From Nitrospinota bacterium (GTDB lineage Bacteria; UBA8248): 16,647 nt of DNA. Made by a program: the position numbers and the translations under genes. The notes under the pieces were generated by a model. That model was not told the DNA's origin, made no database searches, and saw nothing but the letters and a program-made list of their open reading frames with translations. Every line of letters begins with the position of its first letter. Within the stretch, counting starts at the first letter, position 1. The stretch is from assembly GCA_046581755.1 (NCBI GenBank), contig JAYGFR010000249.1, forward strand, positions 1 to 16,647, given 5' to 3'. Below are positions 2,732-14,322 of this stretch, piece after piece.

Positions 2732-4051
2732 TTAATAATCGAAAACGGTCGGACCCTCCACCGGCTCCGCAAGCACCCTCAGAGCCTCGCGGGCGGCCCC
2801 GAGGCGCCATTTGCGCTCGGCCTCCGGCTCCCTGGAAGGATCGCCGAAGGGATGGTGGAAATGGCCCGCCTTGGTGTTCACGATGCGGTTGGCCCCGATG
2901 TCGCGGGCGACATTTGGCAGGCAAGTAACGACGACGGTGGGAATGCCCTCCCGCTCCAGAGCCCTGGCCAGCGCAGCCCCGCTGCGCGTGCCCGTCCCTC
3001 ACGTGGCGGGGAGGACGACCCCCGAAACACCCGAAGCCTTGATCTCCTTCGCCCAGGCCCGGCCGATACCGCCCATGGTTTCGAAGGCCCCGCCGTTGCC
3101 GCAGGTACTCAAGAAATCATCGTGCAGCCCGGCGATTTCGCCCTCGCGCTCCAGCTGGCGGAGCGCGTCCACGGCGAGCATCCGGTCGGGGTCCTCGTTG
3201 ACGAAAACCGTGTTGAACCCCCCGTGGATGGAGATGAAGGTCCCGCCGGGGAGCGTATCTTTTCCGGCCAAAGAGTATTTCGCCCAGTTCTCGTTCCGGG
3301 ACCCGGCGAGCCGGTCGGGGTTGCCGGGCGGAACCATCCCGCCTTCGGAGACAATGGCGATGACCGCTTTGCCAAGGTCGGCGATGGGGGCCGGAGGCGG
3401 GATCTTCTCGAGGAGGGGAACATCGAGTTCGGTCTCGAAAGGCTCTCCCGCGATCTTATTGAGGACAAGATCGACGGCGCGCTGGGAGGTCGGCACCTCG
3501 GAGATTTCGTTGTAGCGGATGCCGCGCGGGATGTAGCCCTCCTCCGCCGCGTTCCCGATGGCCTCGCCCCGGGCGAGCTTGAGCCCGAGCCGGAGAGCGC
3601 CCTCGAGCGCCTCCTCCATGCCGGCCGCCGTATCCCCGCAGGGCACCGTGTAGACCCGTTTTCCGCCCGCCCGGACCCCCGGATTCTCGGGATACATCGC
3701 CGTGACGGCGGGGATCCCGGCCTCCTCGGCCGCCGCCCGGCAGATAGCGGCGCAGGCCAGCCCATAGCGCCCGGCGTTGAAGGCGGGACCCGCCAGGATC
3801 AGATCCGGGGAAAACCCCTTTATCCGCTCCATCGCCTCAGCGGCGCACCGCTCCTCCTCTTCGGCGAAGAGACCGTCCCCGCAAAAAACCGTGCCCACGA
3901 CCGCGCCCTCGCCTCCCAAGATTTTATCGATCAGGAGTCCGGGTCCGGCCGGGCCCTCGTGTGAGGTGATGGGATGATCGCTTTTCTCCTCGCCGCCGGC
4001 GCCGGCGAAGAATTGGTTGATGTATTGAACGATTCGGATTTTTCCGCTCAT
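2732..4051 (-). CDS. grdB: Glycine/sarcosine/betaine reductase selenoprotein B family, 439 aa, Sec351
   Basis: ATG 4051 after a GGAG SD. Family motifs RIVQYINQFFAG, AGPAFNAGRYGLAC and MYPENPG. The TGA at 2999-3001 is followed in frame by GTGTRSGAALARALEREGIPTVVVTCLPNVARDIGANRIV...VEGPTVFDY to TAA at 2732-2734, which matches the GrdB C-terminus. Substrate subtype (grdB/grdF/grdH) is unresolved. Confidence 0.93.
2971..2987 (-). promoter_or_regulatory. Putative SECIS hairpin of grdB
   Basis: GCGCAGC-GGG-GCTGCGC, a perfect 7-bp stem starting 11 nt after the UGA, with G in the apical loop. Confidence 0.75.
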
Positions 4052-4142
4052 TTTCGATTCTCCCCGCCTGGTTCCGCCCGCCTGCGGCATGGTCCAAGGT
4101 TGAAGGCGATTTCCGCATAAGCCGCTCCCGCGAGGGCGCGGC

Positions 4143-5426
4143 TCAATAAGCCTTCCCGGTCATCCGGTTCAGGTCCATCGCCCATTCGTTCGCGTAATAG
4201 TCGCTGTCGGCCATGGTGAAGGCCTCTTTGGCGTCGCGCTCCTTGCCCCCGTACAGATGGATGTTCCGGGAGCCGATGACCCGATCCATCGCCGGAGCCT
4301 CGATGCGGTCGCCCTGCATCCCCTTGCTGACAATCGCGTCCGCCTCGGGGACGTGAAAGACAAGGGGAAACTCGCCGGTTCCGGGCCTGCCCACCTCGTA
4401 GATGATGGGAACGGCCCGCACCCCATTCTGCTCGAGCGCCTGCACCGTGAGCCAGTAGTCCACCGTCGAGTTTCCCCCGCCCTCGAAGGCGAGGACGGCC
4501 CCGTCGGCATTCAGCAGCCGGGCGAGCTTGGCGACGTAATGCGCCGAGCGCTCCTTCAGGGCCTGGTTGTCGCGGTGGCCGCGCGTGATGATGGTTCCGG
4601 CGAATTGAAGGTCCACCCCGTGGCGGCGGTAGAGTTCGTAGGCGAGCGGCATGTTGCAATGAATGTAGGTGGGCGCCTTCTGCTGGGTCTTGTAGTTGGC
4701 CCCGACGACGGCGCCGTCGAACATCTCGTTGGGATGAATGAGGGTGGGCAGTGAATCGCCCAGGTCCTTTCCGTACAGGAAGGTCTGGACCATCGAAGCC
4801 TGGTGCATGACCTGATCCACGAAAACCACGCGTGGAAGCGCGGGGTCGGCATCGCCCAACTCGAAGGTCTCCATCCGGACCGGCTCCAGGGACGCCGTGC
4901 ACTCGGCCAGCCGGGAGGCAATTTTCAGGGTGGCGAGCCGCACCGCGTCGTCGTGGGCTTCGTTCGAGACCCCGTCGACCGGCTTGTAGCGCGCGACGAG
5001 ATTCACCGTCTCCGAGTTGGTGCAGTACCTCCCACCCGGGCCGGTCATGTCGATGATACCTTCCCGGTAGGTCATGATGCCGGTCATGGGACCCAGGAAA
5101 TAAGTCGAGCTGATCACGCACATTCCGGACAACTTATGGGTCCGCCCCTGACCCGCCGTCTTCGCCGGCCCGAGAAACCCCGGAAACGCGCACGAGGGGC
5201 CGCTCACCTTGAAAAGCGGTTCTACGGCGTCGAGCACGTTCGTGATGCGGACCGATTCGCCGGGCCTGGCGGTGTGGAAGCTGACGTCATCCAGATTCCC
5301 GTCCCGAAGGGCCAGCTCGCGAAGCTCGGCCGGGTCCACCGTGAGGGTCCTCTCCCGGTAGGCGGTTCGATCCCCCAGGACCACCCGGTTCACCGGGAAA
5401 TACCCCATCTCCAGCCGCATGGACAT
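4143..5426 (-). CDS. grdE: Glycine/sarcosine/betaine reductase component B subunit (GrdE/GrdG/GrdI family), 427 aa
   Basis: Motifs ARPGESVRITNVLDAVEP, EGIIDMTGPG, PTLIHPNEMFDGAVV and EGGGN. GAGG SD overlaps the grdA 3' end, and the gene lies between grdA and grdB. Confidence 0.88.
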   Translation of the reverse strand: MSMRLEMGYFPVNRVVLGDRTAYRERTLTVDPAELRELALRDGNLDDVSFHTARPGESVRITNVLDAVEPLFKVSGPSCAFPGFLGPAKTAGQGRTHKLSGMCVISSTYFLGPMTGIMTYREGIIDMTGPGGRYCTNSETVNLVARYKPVDGVSNEAHDDAVRLATLKIASRLAECTASLEPVRMETFELGDADPALPRVVFVDQVMHQASMVQTFLYGKDLGDSLPTLIHPNEMFDGAVVGANYKTQQKAPTYIHCNMPLAYELYRRHGVDLQFAGTIITRGHRDNQALKERSAHYVAKLARLLNADGAVLAFEGGGNSTVDYWLTVQALEQNGVRAVPIIYEVGRPGTGEFPLVFHVPEADAIVSKGMQGDRIEAPAMDRVIGSRNIHLYGGKERDAKEAFTMADSDYYANEWAMDLNRMTGKAY

Positions 5427-5429
5427 CCG

Positions 5430-5888
5430 CTATCCTCTAATCGCCCCGCGAACCTGGGCCAGATCCTCTTCGATCCGGGGCAGGTCGAGCACCATTTCCA
5501 TCATTTCGAGTTTTTCCGCATAAATGTCCCGGGGAACTTCGCTGCGGACTTTTTCTTCCAGGATATGAAACACCGGGAGTTCCAACGAGACTCCCGCCAA
5601 GGGACCGGCCCAGCTGGGGTCTCCGGTCGTCAGCGTCTCGGCCGCGAGCCGGACGCCCTCACCGGGCATCCCCAGCACCACCACCAGGTTCTTGGCGCCG
5701 AATTTTTCGGCGAGCTCCTTGATGGCGGCCTGGTTTTCCAGGTCCATGGCACCCGCGGAGGTTCAGACGAAGCACTCGGTCTTCTGAAAAACGACCTCGC
5801 CCCCGGCCGCCTCGATGCACTCGGCGATGGCCGGGCCGGGAACCCCGTCCCGCTCTCCCAGGGCAATTACCTTTTTCCCTTTGAACAT
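5430..5888 (-). CDS. grdA: Glycine/sarcosine/betaine reductase selenoprotein A, 152 aa, Sec42
   Basis: ATG 5888 after a [49 protein letters not shown](TGA 5763-5765)[11 protein letters not shown]...[12 protein letters not shown], giving the hallmark CxxU motif. The track shows only the part after the UGA. Confidence 0.95.
5727..5745 (-). promoter_or_regulatory. Candidate SECIS hairpin of grdA
   Basis: GG(A)CCTGG-AAAA-CCAGG-CC; the core stem starts 20 nt after the UGA. Confidence 0.5.
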
Positions 5889-5941
5889 TCGGCACTCCTC
5901 TCGTTCCATCTGGATGATACCGTTCCGTTTCGATGACGCCG

Positions 5942-7354
5942 CTAGGTTTCGATGACGACCGACGCGCCGTCGGAATGCTGGGACATCCGGCCAAGGAACA
6001 AAGAACCCTTCGCCACCACCATCGTACTCCGAAGGTCTCCCCTCCGCATCCCCGCAAGGGCATGGCCGAGATAGGGGACGCCCGCGGGAATGTGCCCCTG
6101 GGTCGGAGCGAACCCCGGCATCCCGCGCTCCTCGACGAAGGAGTCGATATCCTCTCTCCCGATTTCGCCCGCCATGACGGCCAGCGCCGCGAGGGTGCGG
6201 TAGTTGGTCCGCGGAACATCGCCCGCGCCCGCCGGGAGCGTCACCCCGGGGTCGTGGAGCTCGACGGCGTACTTGTCGATATCGCAGATTCGCCGGCCGG
6301 CCCGTGCGAGCGGATCGCGCACCAGCGCCTCGGCCAGCCCCTGCGGGGTGGAAGGCTGTCCCGCCGCGTGGCGGCCGGCGATCTCAAGGTTCACGCGGGG
6401 GCCGTCCCCATCGCCCGTGCCGAGCAAAAAGGCGACCGATCCCAGAACGTCCTCCAAAACGGGCATCTCCTTTTCGATGTGGCGGTGGGCTTTCATCCCC
6501 AGCTTGGCCAGCGAGCCACCGCCGACGATGGCGACGTTGCGCACGACCCCCGCCTGGATGAGGGCCGCGCCGTGGATCAAGGCGACGACGGGCGCCGCGC
6601 AAAACGATTTGATGTCCGTCCCGGCGGCGTTCACGCAGCCGGCCATCTCGGCGATGGCCTTGGCGAGGTTGCCGCCCCCCCGGTTGTAGCGGTCGCCGAC
6701 GGCCTCCTCAGAGCAGCTGATCACGTATTCGAGCTCATCGGGCGCAGTCCCGGCCCCCTCGAGAAGATGCCGCAGCACATAGGCGCCGCTCGCCTTTGCC
6801 GCCAGATTTTCGAGGAGAATGCGCGCACCCAGCGCCTCGTCGGTTTCGTGATCCCGCCTGGCGCAGCCGATGAGCGCATCGCCCCGGTAAAGCGGAAGGG
6901 CCTCCCCCGATTCGACGAGGCGGAGGATGTCCTCCCTCCCGGACGCCTTCGGCGGCACGGCGCTTTCCAACAAAGGGACGGCAAGCGAGGCGCCCTCCGC
7001 CCCGAGGGGCCGCTCGAACATGGTGAGACCGAACAGATCCGCCGCCGCGAGGAGGGCGTAGAACGTCTCCTGACCGAGAATCTCTCCGAACGCGCCCCGG
7101 GCGGATGCGCCCCCGGCGGGGTGGGCATGCCAGGGCAGGAGAACCTCCCTCAACCGCTCGGGCGCGATGTTGCCGATGAACGCCTGGTTCGGCGGGTAAG
7201 CCACCGCCTCATCGAACTGCCTGAGGCGCTTCGAGAGAGCCCGCGAGAAAGAATCGCCCTGGGCGGCGATCTCGCGGAAACACTTCGACCCGTAGCGCAC
7301 CAAATCGGGCACATGAACAAGAACGTTGGCCGCCGCACGCAACACCGGGGTCAT
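5942..7354 (-). CDS. grdC: Glycine/sarcosine/betaine reductase component C subunit beta (FabH-like), 470 aa
   Basis: ATG 7354 after a GGAGAGGTGG SD. Motifs [68 protein letters not shown] and [10 protein letters not shown]. Confidence 0.93.
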
Positions 7355-7397: not shown

Positions 7398-7425
7398 ATT
7401 ATGCGGCAACAGCACCCTATTTCAA
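7398..7425 (-). promoter_or_regulatory. Putative sigma70-type promoter of grdC
   Basis: TTGAAA-N16-CATAAT, about 45 nt upstream of the grdC start. A near-identical copy lies at 10794-10821. Confidence 0.55.
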
Positions 7426-11065: not shown

Positions 11066-12481
11066 CTAGCGGGCTTCGTTCAGGGCGGCCCGCCCGCCGG
11101 CCCGGCCGCGATCGATGAAACACCCGAAACCGGGTTTTTTCTCTAAAACTCCATCGCGCACCACCACTTCGCCCCGCACCAGGGTCATCTCGATTCTGCC
11201 CGTCAGCGCTCTGCCCTCTAAAAGCGAGTAGTCGGAGTGGGTGTGCTGGTCCGCCGCGCGGACAACCGTTTCCCCCTCCGGGTCGATGACGGCGATGTCG
11301 GCGTCCGCGCCCGGATGGAGGTTTCCTTTCCGGGGGTGGAGGCCGAGAACCCGGGCTGGGAATTCGCTCGCGACCTGAACGAGCCGATCCAGGGAGATGC
11401 GCCCGGCGGCGGCGCCCTCGCTATAGAGGACGGGCAGAAGGGTCTCGATCCCCGGCGCGCCGAAGGGGGAGTCGATGAAGGACGCCTCTTCTTTTTGGGC
11501 CCGGGTGTAGGGGGAGTGATCGCTCCCGATCAGGTCGATGCTGCCCTTCCGGACGCCCTCCCAGAGGGCGTCGATGTCCGGCTGGGAGCGGAGGGGCGGG
11601 GCCACCTTGGCGATCGCCCCCCACTCGGCCACGGCATCGTCGGTGATCGTGAGGTACTGGGGGCAGGTCTCGGCGGCGAGGTCCCTGCCCTCGGCCTGGG
11701 CGCGCCTGACCTCGGCCAGGGCGGCGGCCGATGTGACGTGGACGATGTAGAGCGGGCACCCAGCCAGGGCGGCCAGATGGGCTGAGCGGGCGACGGCCTC
11801 GGCCTCGATCCCGGGGGGGCGCGACCGCCGGAGGTACTCCGCCCCGTCGATTCCCTCGGCGATGGCTTTGTCCTCGAGATAATCGACCACCGGCCCGTTT
11901 TCGGCATGGACCAGCACGATCCCCCCGCAGGCGGCGGCGCGCTCCATGGCGGCGTAGGTGTACTCGTCCGGGATGCACCGGCCCCGGCCCCGTTTGCGGT
12001 AGCCCATCATGACCTTGAAGGAGGTGACGCCGGCGTCCACGGCCTTGGGGATTTCGGCCAGATAGCCGAAGTCCTCGAAGATCCAGGCGTGGAGGGAGAA
12101 ATCGGCCACGCACCCCGCCTCGCCCTCCTCGCGGCAGCGGCGGAGGGCGCCGAGCATGGATTCGTCCTCCTCGCCGGTGGCGAAGGCGACCAGGGTTGTG
12201 ACGCCGCCGTGGACGCCGCTGCGCGAGACATCGCCCAGGGTGTCGCACTGAGAGGAAAAGGTCCGGAAGTGGACGTGGGGATCGACCGCGCCGGGGAGGA
12301 TCAGCTTGCCCGTCAAATCCATCACCTCTCCGGCGGGAGGGGCATCCCCGGCCGCGCCGGTCCAGGCCACCCGGCCATCGCGGATGCCGAGGGCGGCGGC
12401 GCGGGAGCCGCCGCCGAGAACGTACGTGCCACCGATGAGGAGCAGGTCGAGGGGAGGGTTTCCAGGGCCTTGGGCCATCAT
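11066..12481 (-). CDS. Cyclic amidohydrolase (dihydropyrimidinase/hydantoinase/allantoinase-like), 471 aa
   Basis: ATG 12481 after AAGGAG (track start 12625 is probably too long). Binuclear-site motifs PGAVDPHVHF, SFKVMMGY, VHAEN, IVHVTS, ETCPQYL, PPLR and GSDHSP. Confidence 0.9.
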   Translation of the reverse strand: MMAQGPGNPPLDLLLIGGTYVLGGGSRAAALGIRDGRVAWTGAAGDAPPAGEVMDLTGKLILPGAVDPHVHFRTFSSQCDTLGDVSRSGVHGGVTTLVAFATGEEDESMLGALRRCREEGEAGCVADFSLHAWIFEDFGYLAEIPKAVDAGVTSFKVMMGYRKRGRGRCIPDEYTYAAMERAAACGGIVLVHAENGPVVDYLEDKAIAEGIDGAEYLRRSRPPGIEAEAVARSAHLAALAGCPLYIVHVTSAAALAEVRRAQAEGRDLAAETCPQYLTITDDAVAEWGAIAKVAPPLRSQPDIDALWEGVRKGSIDLIGSDHSPYTRAQKEEASFIDSPFGAPGIETLLPVLYSEGAAAGRISLDRLVQVASEFPARVLGLHPRKGNLHPGADADIAVIDPEGETVVRAADQHTHSDYSLLEGRALTGRIEMTLVRGEVVVRDGVLEKKPGFGCFIDRGRAGGRAALNEAR

Positions 12482-12924: not shown

Positions 12925-14322
12925 TTATTTTGCGTAGAAATCCGCCTTGCTTAGATACCCGCTCCAGGCAAACCAGTATGCGATGTGGCCGGGCAGGCGT
13001 GTCAGGGTTTCCCCCTTTGGGCCCTTTAGGGCCGCTTCCGTGATGGTCCATATGGCGCCTTTGGAGGAAAGCTGGTTCGGCCCGGGTCCTTTCTTGAAGA
13101 CGCGGCCTCCAGAGCGGTAGGCGCGCACCGTGCGGCTCGTGGCGCCGCCCACCAGAACGATTTCGAGAATCCCAACGCGGTCGTTGAGCACCCTGCCACC
13201 CTCGAAGGCGCTTAGCGGCCAGGCTTTTTGGACGCCCGTCATCCGCAGGCCGAAGACATAATCCTTCGGCCGGAGCCGCGCGTCCAGGGTGAGGGCCGGA
13301 AACATCAGGTCGGGGCTTGCGAAGTAGGTGCCGTAGGGCAAGCCCGGTGAATAGTTTCGATCATATCCGGTTCGAAGCGAGAGCACCTTGGTTTTGGGAT
13401 GCCGCGCGCGCCACTCGTCCCAAGTAGCGATCACCACCGGCAAAATCTTCAACCTGATTCCGGAGCCTGTCAGTTTGCCCACCACTGGACGGCCCGTGAA
13501 CTGGTTCCAAAGCGAGTGGGTCTGGCGGTCGTACATGAGCTTGTTGGAGCGGTAGAGAAAGCCGGAAGACCCGAAGACAAAAGATTTGCTTCTTCCTTTC
13601 ACACGCGTACCGAAAAGGATCCCCGATCCGCACAGAGTTCAGTAGGCAAGAGAAACCGGCACGCCTCCGATCACGTCGTTGAACATCTCATGCCAGTCCA
13701 TGAAACGCAGCGGATAGGCGTGCACGTCACCGTTAATCTCGACGCCGAAGACGAGTTCCTCTTTGGTGAGATAGTCCGCTTCGGCCGCGGGGATTAACTC
13801 CGGGTTGGTCAAGGCCGGAATCCCGTCTTTCTTCACCCCGCCCCAGACGATCTCTTCGAGGCGGATCTCGTGTTTCACGCCGGGACGGAGGAAAACGCGA
13901 AAATTGGGATCGATTCGCGCGAAGAGGTCGGCTTGGAATCGATCGAAACCCTCGAAGGATTTGACCTCTGGATGGGCCTGCTACCAGAGCATCCAGTCGT
14001 TCCAATCGGGGCCGTAATTCGCGCCGGTGATCGCCTTGAGCACCCCGGTGTTTTTCGCCCGATCGCCCGGAACGTAGCGCAGGGCCATGATCAGGGCGGC
14101 GGCTACGTCCGGCTTGCCCCGGCGGGCCATCCAGGCGCGCGCGTTATCGCGAACCCAGGGAGGCGCTGAGATCAGCGAGACCGCGAATTTGCCGGTATCG
14201 CTCATCGATCCGGAAGAAGCCGACTCTCCCAGCGCTTGAGGTGCGGCGGGAAGGAAGAACAGAAAAAGCGCAAGCAACAACGACGTAGCCCGACTCACCG
14301 GCGTTCCCCCGAATTCAACCAT
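12925..14322 (-). CDS. DUF3179-family selenoprotein (UxxC), probably exported; in-frame TAG at 13981-13983, so probably a pseudogene or base-call error
   Basis: Three track ORFs (13981-14322, 13639-13878, 12925-13602) share one frame. Signal peptide...DWMLW-(TAG)-QAHPEV...GGVKKDGIPAL...AYPLRFMDWHEMFND...SLAY-(TGA 13639-13641)-TLCGSG...FGSSGFLYRSNKLMYDRQTHSLWNQ...AYWFAW. The start may be GTG 14298. Confidence 0.85.
13617..13629 (-). promoter_or_regulatory. Putative SECIS hairpin of the DUF3179 gene
   Basis: GGATC-GGG-GATCC starting 9 nt after the UGA, with the same C-GGG-G apex as the grdB hairpin. Confidence 0.55.

Follow-up and report, generated by a model that had tools for sequence, protein, structure and literature searches.

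What does a selenium-dependent reductase of the glycine reductase (Grd) type do in a genome that holds no GrdD, the partner of GrdC in the canonical route to acetyl phosphate? The question is raised by the grdC-grdA-grdE-grdB locus of a marine Nitrospinota bacterium (assembly GCA_046581755.1), on the 16,647-nucleotide contig JAYGFR010000249.1, the whole of which is called the window here. An earlier note, made from the sequence alone, had described four co-oriented genes that either act on a new substrate or run a different overall reaction. The genes are arranged as it said, on the minus strand with gaps of 53, 3 and 91 nucleotides and two in-frame UGA codons, and family scans place all four products in the Grd superfamily, as GrdC, GrdA, a GrdE-family subunit and a GrdB-family selenoprotein (Table 1). 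The locus is a real operon with two selenoprotein genes, and the evidence favours the second option, that of a different overall reaction. That the system does not follow the canonical GrdD route is very probable; that this GrdD-less reductase with two selenoproteins turns X-CH2-COO- into acetyl-coenzyme A (acetyl-CoA), and not into acetyl phosphate, is a proposal to which we give an even chance. G, L and C numbers below denote genomes, loci and contigs of our survey.

A component C without GrdD

No GrdD over the cut-off was found in any of the 42 genomes of the family, including five single-contig genomes that hold the operon, in a search that gave true GrdD 581 and 508 bits. Forty weak matches, of at most 35 bits, were limited to the PlsX-like middle of the model, and that of the window's genome is the PlsX of a plsX-fabH operon, spanning positions 136-227 only. 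This PlsX has neither the N-terminal helix of GrdD nor the GMGCxGP motif that is invariant in 13 GrdD rows and that would fit the role of Cys359, reportedly identified by Kohlstock and colleagues as the phosphorolysis cysteine of GrdD. The absence of grdD stated in the earlier note therefore holds genome-wide, and a GrdD encoded elsewhere, the possibility that the note itself had raised, was not found; thioredoxin and its reductase are missing from the locus only, with homologues on C94, C246 and C351. In the related loci L177, L181 and L127 a thioredoxin gene lies between grdA and grdC.

AckA and Pta were likewise found in none of the 42 genomes (controls 9/14 and 10/14), and neither a PduL-type Pta nor, over its cut-off, Xsc was found in the five genomes searched, so that acetyl phosphate would be left without its usual outlet. 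Acylphosphatase is present in 34 of the 42 genomes; in genus g9 the operon occurs in 4/4 and acylphosphatase in 0/4. Heme-copper oxidase subunit I was detected in all five genomes tested, and Acs over its cut-off also in 5/5. Record labels place the close relatives in Nitrospinota, Nitrospinaceae or Tectomicrobia; the group is UBA8248 in GTDB.

GrdC had been called conventional. It does clear the threshold of its family (575 vs 450 bits), yet no other part of the system has changed so much, GrdC differing both in its tail and in its residues. We compared 27 GrdD-less GrdC rows (our own family thinned to five, with L177 and L181 counted as GrdD-less on locus evidence only) with 22 GrdD-linked rows, two of which are cut fusions. 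GrdC ends 0-15 residues beyond position 470 in 26 of the 27 and 33-44 residues beyond it in 22 of the 22; in a narrower set of rows, the distance from GSLFL to the end is 16-19 residues without GrdD and 49-56 with it. The extra part is an amphipathic helix, and GrdD starts with a similar one, the similarity between them being weak (E=4.6e-4). Two natural GrdC-GrdD fusions (L089 and L099, 864-865 residues, from Clostridiales metagenome-assembled genomes) are without either terminal helix. Co-occurrence, the fusions and the weak helix similarity suggest that the tail may serve to dock GrdD; a complex prediction for a canonical GrdC tail and GrdD (2+2 copies, L115) scored 0.02. The window's clade also contains a protein of 526 residues (P0162) with both GrdC and GrdA Pfam domains, possibly a GrdC-GrdA fusion or a read-through product.

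The GrdD-less rows carry K or R at position 24 (25/25 covered), R27 (24/25) and R222, Y223 and K288 (27/27 each), where the GrdD-linked rows have T24, no R27, mostly M222/N223 and, in 22/22, N288. Cys252 is invariant in all 49 rows. His421 is invariant too and maps to the second catalytic loop region. The predicted structure (predicted local distance difference test, pLDDT, 91) has the thiolase/FabH fold, with a best hit against FabH and thiolases of Z 22.0 (root-mean-square deviation 4.3, 278 residues aligned), at 10-18% identity and with large insertions. In the alignment, Cys252 falls on the nucleophile of FabH and N384-x-R386 on its QANIR stretch (N247-x-R249); K288 lies in the loop that holds DRR in FabH, and K24 and R27 follow directly on strand 1, at the place of the W-x-x-x-R segment of FabH. 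FabH Arg36, Arg151 and Asn247 are described as positioning the substrate at the mouth of the tunnel (PMC10054515). In a quick GrdC tree, GrdD-linked and GrdD-less proteins are divided by a single branch (99 by the Shimodaira-Hasegawa-like approximate likelihood ratio test).

GrdD-less systems are also found in other phyla. Five Chloroflexota and Acidobacteriota genomes had GrdC over the cut-off in 5/5, GrdD in 0/5 and AckA in 0/5, and in two Dehalococcoidia records that are complete and contain GrdC, no match was found even at the GrdD/PlsX level. In a sample of 401 genomes from the phylum of G043 (a Desulfovibrionaceae record) GrdC occurs in 21, seven of them with GrdD, all of these with the long tail and AckA, and 14 with neither GrdD nor the long tail. 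In the open literature we found no description of a GrdD-less Grd system or of acetyl-CoA release by GrdC, subscription papers and supplements lying outside this scope; the supplementary tree of PMC9751293 may contain members of the class.

Two other arrangements were seen in this survey. In Dehalococcoidia and other Chloroflexota (L112, L114, L117, L119-L123), at least three tandem grdB-grdE paralogues (UGTCNRC) accompany one short GrdC, which suggests many substrates feeding one A/C system. Three family genomes (G021 and G027, loci L047:6435-14743 and L048; also G024) hold a second, near-identical GrdD-less cassette about 50% identical to that of the window and probably acquired separately, with the order regulator-grdA-grdC-grdE-grdB (UGSGTRS, short GrdC) and then genes for a TctC/B/A-like transporter.

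Component B and its substrate

Alignment with the references bears out that both subunits of component B have lost their signature cysteines: GrdE reads GANY-KTQQK where the references have SGNCVSACDK or SGNCVAPCDK, and in GrdB UGTGTRS replaces UGTCTRC. The second of the lost GrdE cysteines, Cys242, is described as supplying the pyruvoyl group (peptide 242-266; PMC9908766). This paired loss is not new, since it has already been described for fluoroacetate reductase, an enzyme of the diderm Synergistota with a non-amine substrate, in which FarB is without CxxC and FarE without both cysteines (PMC10838667). Nor is a diderm host unusual, Grd systems being common in diderms (Synergistota, Desulfobacterota, Cloacimonadota). 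What is novel in the system is its one-subunit component C, together with a likely change in the product, and less so the loss of cysteines from component B. A GrdB without CxxC has been termed a likely pseudogene (PMC6778437), and the conservation of UGTGTRS-type GrdB across genera and phyla argues against this here.

The proposal of a distinct Grd subfamily is upheld by model scores and trees. GrdB stays below the cut-offs of the glycine (TIGR01917, 399 vs 602 bits), sarcosine GrdF (NF040794, 423 vs 800) and betaine GrdH (NF040795, 358 vs 775) models, and GrdE below those of GrdG (NF040793, 261 vs 780) and FarE (NF053623, 142 vs 675). In quick trees the window's GrdB and GrdE each sit in a supported clade of their own and nest in no characterised one; the sister clade is made up of metagenome sequences and, by record names, Burkholderiales and Dehalococcoidia. 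Approximately unbiased (AU) tests (40 rows, quick trees, LG+G4) rejected the union of the window's GrdB with glycine GrdB (p=1e-7), GrdF (p=1.3e-5), FarB (p=0.0006) and GrdH (p=0.0039). Reference labels were checked against curated models: the glycine reference is Acetoanaerobium noterae, both Peptoclostridium acidaminophilum references are of sarcosine type, and FarB/E is represented by Synergistota genomes that exceed the FarE cut-off, not by strain MFA1 itself. The trees, with our own family thinned and PrdA/PrdB left out, are unrooted, and GrdD may have been either lost or gained. The glycine (AHGGxD..TxGNxTxV) and sarcosine (IHGGYDR..TTGTGT) motifs reported in PMC9751293 are not matched by the window's GrdB.

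Beside the glycine reductase of A. noterae (L135/L137, TIGR01917 946 bits), the window's system has the same A, B, E and C homologues, selenocysteine (Sec) in A (CxxU) and in B, a selenocysteine insertion sequence (SECIS) hairpin in the same place and, in GrdC, the same cysteine, Asn384 and TQGH motif. It differs in having no GrdD, no GrdC tail of about 35 residues, no pyruvoyl cysteine, no CxxC after Sec and no local trx genes, in its new basic residues, in the order C-A-E-B, in a B with 40% identity and in a host without AckA/Pta and with heme-copper oxidase. The sarcosine GrdF/GrdG of P. acidaminophilum (L134/L138, NF040794 855 bits) and the betaine GrdH/GrdI (L140, NF040795 803 bits) are of the same family and fold, but keep UGTCTRC, the HxG[FY]D aspartate and GrdC-GrdD. 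FarB/FarE (loci L166-L176, NF053623) likewise lack the canonical cysteines and, according to PMC10838667, need no Schiff base; the FarB motif, however, is UGTSSR[CG], and FarB/E are proposed there to feed a canonical A/C system, whereas the window's component B has its own short GrdC.

The predicted GrdB model (pLDDT 93) gave generic alpha/beta matches alone in fold searches (best Z 10.6), none of them informative about the substrate, and a sequence search of the PDB with GrdB and GrdC as single queries gave no match. Among 132 GrdB rows, Cys317 (STCGN) and the first cysteine of UxxCxxC never occur together: Cys317 stands alone in 41 rows and the other in 72, and 19 have neither. Cys317 may stand in for that cysteine, a lead for which a test on independent pairs, too few in number, was not significant. 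Directly after HxG[FY], the references for glycine, sarcosine and betaine carry Asp, and FarB and 33/33 rows of the window's type carry Asn, which leans, weakly, toward an uncharged leaving group.

In all likelihood, the substrate is something other than glycine or sarcosine. A substrate with an uncharged leaving group (halide, thiolate, ether) is the foremost candidate by a small margin, though short of probable, and an N-substituted glycine seems unlikely. Onium compounds are common in the sea, and component B might cleave one of them (glycine betaine, dimethylsulfonioacetate, arsenobetaine), as the earlier note had suggested. Nothing points there, however: grouping with GrdH is rejected by the AU test, the cut-off of the GrdH model is not reached, the Asp of GrdH HAGFD is replaced by Asn, as in FarB, no BCCT transporter was seen among the conserved neighbours, and the sister clade sits among what we take, from sequence pattern and not from a family scan, to be TctC-like carboxylate-binding proteins. 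A point on the other side is that betaine reductase likewise does without a pyruvoyl proprotein, as described for GrdI (PMC10838667). On this evidence an onium substrate is unlikely.

Related component B genes were seen at other loci. The genome of the window has a second grdE-grdB pair (L001:1490-4197, contig G000:C60; UGTSTRS, SHGGYD, in-frame TGA) without grdA or grdC and with an acyl-CoA dehydrogenase-like gene after it. In grouping, this pair is loosely associated with FarB and further types that lack CxxC, and it likely relies on the GrdA and GrdC of the window. In the Bacillota loci L096, L100 and L105, an aldehyde dehydrogenase-like gene comes after a grdB-grdE pair with the motif SSUATGTRC.

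The proposed reaction and its alternatives

In the reaction that we propose, GrdB Sec351 would, by analogy with the family, displace X, and would do so without a pyruvoyl Schiff base; the Sec codon is present and the pyruvoyl site is lost. The carboxymethyl group would pass to GrdA Sec42, in its intact CxxU, and GrdC would cleave the C-Se bond of carboxymethyl-selenoprotein A, its acetyl donor, holding the acetyl as a thioester on Cys252, which has the appropriate position. In the new step, CoA would enter the tunnel of the thiolase fold, along which K24, R27 and K288 would be placed, and accept the acetyl; Arg36, Arg151 and Asn247 of FabH contact the CoA nucleotide. Housekeeping thioredoxin and thioredoxin reductase, encoded elsewhere in the genome, could re-reduce GrdA. 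Acetyl-CoA would be gained for NADPH and no ATP, a balance that fits a heterotroph that respires and not a Stickland fermenter. Acetyl-CoA as the product, suggested by these sequence features, could as easily prove right as wrong.

Several observations weigh against this proposal. In the structural alignment with FabH, K288 stands opposite a gap and K24 and R27 fall outside the aligned region, and Cys252 is also invariant among the GrdD-linked GrdCs. The single branch of the GrdC tree makes the tail, the residues and the absence of GrdD one evolutionary event, so that they may partly be marks of lineage, and the GrdD-less row L206 carries a long C-terminus. AckA is present in 8 of the 14 GrdD-less genomes of the 401-genome sample; loss of AckA is therefore not a rule, and it is the tail and GrdD that go together. 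Acylphosphatase and Acs, present as given above, would permit an acetate route. Finally, the family loci surveyed have no constant neighbour gene beyond the four grd genes, and none that indicates the substrate.

Of the alternatives for the product, the one that fares best is a hydrolytic GrdC, which would release free acetate from the acetyl thioester for Acs to re-activate, the system serving substrate cleavage or detoxification without conserving the acyl energy. Fluoroacetate reduction is a case of Grd chemistry in the service of dehalogenation (PMC10838667), and Acs in 5/5 genomes together with the absence of GrdD, AckA and Pta would agree with it; yet it leaves the invariant new basic residues of the GrdD-less GrdCs unexplained and wastes NADPH and two ATP equivalents. 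Simple hydrolases, besides, would suffice for haloacetates. We regard this route as improbable.

Still less probable is that acetyl phosphate is made after all, either by the short GrdC alone, its basic residues binding phosphate, or with the housekeeping PlsX in the place of GrdD. R222/Y223 do lie in a loop beside the active site in the FabH alignment, PlsX is a homologue of GrdD, acylphosphatase is frequent in the family, and AckA occurs in the GrdD-less genomes of another phylum just mentioned. AckA and Pta are nevertheless absent from the family, g9 being also without acylphosphatase; as for PlsX, it belongs to a lipid operon and is without the helix and motif of GrdD, and the two complete Dehalococcoidia records have nothing at its level. 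Condensation of acetyl-GrdC with an acyl-CoA or another acceptor, in the manner of FabH or thiolase and giving a beta-keto product, is quite remote: the fold is common to FabH, OleA, PqsC and PhlA and His421 is invariant, but there is no conserved acyl carrier protein, thiolase or biosynthetic neighbour, and the four genes move as a lone cassette. That the enzyme is a normal glycine or sarcosine reductase whose GrdD has diverged or escaped assembly, as the database names of the relatives (glycine, sarcosine or betaine reductase) and a genome 96.5% complete in 400 contigs might suggest, is very hard to maintain and largely refuted, since such names are family-level transfers, AU tests reject both glycine GrdB (p=1e-7) and GrdF, the published motifs are unmatched, the pyruvoyl cysteine is gone and GrdD is missing even from single-contig genomes.

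Selenocysteine codons, gene order and neighbouring genes

The order C-A-E-B is kept in 18/18 family loci long enough to show four genes, out of 23 compared, the other five being broken by contig ends; grdB and grdC are each present in 30 of the 42 family genomes. The 30 family sequences that match GrdB best hold exactly one TGA apiece, the grdA TGA is retained in all relatives that cover its position, and the genome encodes tRNA-Sec and SelA, which together with the kept gene order argues that the in-frame UGAs are not due to chance. Both behave as Sec codons and would be read as such. The hairpin predicted by RNA folding 3' of the grdB UGA stands at the same distance as in clostridial grdB, and in it the codon change from Cys to Ser (TGC to AGC) is paired with a compensating change in the opposite arm. 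The outer pairing of the grdA hairpin differs between relatives; no Rfam match was found. At G000:C136:1964-6415, selA is followed by a 638-residue elongation-factor-like gene, likely selB.

Table 1. Features of the grd operon and its surroundings, in window coordinates.
Feature	Position	Strand	Evidence
grdC, short type, 470 aa	5942..7354	-	NF040746 575 bits > cut-off 450
grdA, selenoprotein A, 152 aa, C39-x-x-U42 intact	5430..5888	-	NF040748 212 bits > 130
grdE-like component B subunit, 427 aa, without the two pyruvoyl-site cysteines	4143..5426	-	PF09338 359 bits
grdB-like component B selenoprotein, 439 aa; UGTGTRS, IHGGFNT, STCGNGG (Cys317)	2732..4051	-	TIGR01918 419 bits (cut-off 65)
Codon of GrdC Cys252	6599..6601	-	aligned with FabH catalytic cysteine
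In-frame UGA, grdA Sec42 (motif CFVU)	5763..5765	-	sequence
In-frame UGA, grdB Sec351 (motif ATUGTGTRS)	2999..3001	-	sequence
Predicted SECIS-like hairpin 3' of grdA UGA	5706..5756, core stem ~5739-5726	-	RNA folding, window and relatives; prediction
Predicted SECIS hairpin 3' of grdB UGA	2963..2990	-	RNA folding
Sigma-70-like promoter match (10/12), 44 nt upstream of grdC	7398..7425	-	consensus match alone

Sigma-70-like promoter matches number four in the region, against 1.3 expected. Pieces of the operon are found in contigs of 4/4 marine RNA runs; flanking genes are also covered and carry-over of DNA is possible, so that these contigs do not establish transcription of the operon.

A hydantoinase/dihydropyrimidinase-like amidohydrolase (window 11066-12478, minus strand) was considered as supplier of the substrate and rejected as a fixed partner. 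It is below curated cut-offs, lies close to grd in three loci (directly 3' of grdB in G022 and G027), is missing from g9 and is present in the grd-less G003, G030 and G031, and so is not co-distributed with grd. MmgE/PrpD-like, short-chain dehydrogenase/reductase, acyl-CoA dehydrogenase and transporter neighbours were also rejected as partners, their occurrence being local only. The gap between grdE and grdB is an insertion hotspot, with inserts of 0.7-2 kb in 7/22 loci (L056, L058, L064, L065, L068, L071, L072), some holding small open reading frames (ORFs), PIN-domain-like by appearance. Upstream of the Grd cluster of L181 (2699-5685) are two pairs of a short ORF and one of 340-350 residues, with no NCBIfam match at 1e-30, which we presume to resemble split UGSC-type selenoproteins.

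Elsewhere in the window, all on the minus strand, lie a secretin-like protein that runs off the contig end (1-1333) and an outer-membrane beta-barrel-like protein with no family match (1471-2277), both consistent with a diderm host. An ORF at 12925-13878 continues through a TGA at about 13637-13639 in the context LAYUTLCGSG (UxxC), and is likely a third selenoprotein of the window.

Implications

The step by which protein C turns carboxymethyl-selenoprotein A into an acetyl thioester has been described as unresolved (PMC10298544). A natural one-subunit protein C offers a simpler system for this step and predicts which subunit is responsible; if our proposal is true, it would prove that GrdC, and not GrdD, forms the acetyl thioester. 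The length of the GrdC tail together with K288/R222 provides a simple sequence test for the GrdD-less class. If the product is acetyl-CoA, annotations of many environmental genomes as carrying out glycine or betaine fermentation, or a reductive glycine route to acetyl phosphate, would be wrong, and metabolic engineers would take an interest in a way of making acetyl-CoA from C2 acids without ATP. We tentatively suggest, as a reading about as liable to fail as to hold and perhaps a little more so, that this is a second widespread class of Grd systems, in which one thiolase-fold subunit replaces GrdC-GrdD and haloacetates, thioethers or other X-acetates are converted directly to acetyl-CoA, with NADPH but no ATP being spent. 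If true, it would give respiring bacteria of the sea and the soil a selenium-dependent way into central metabolism that has so far gone unrecognised.

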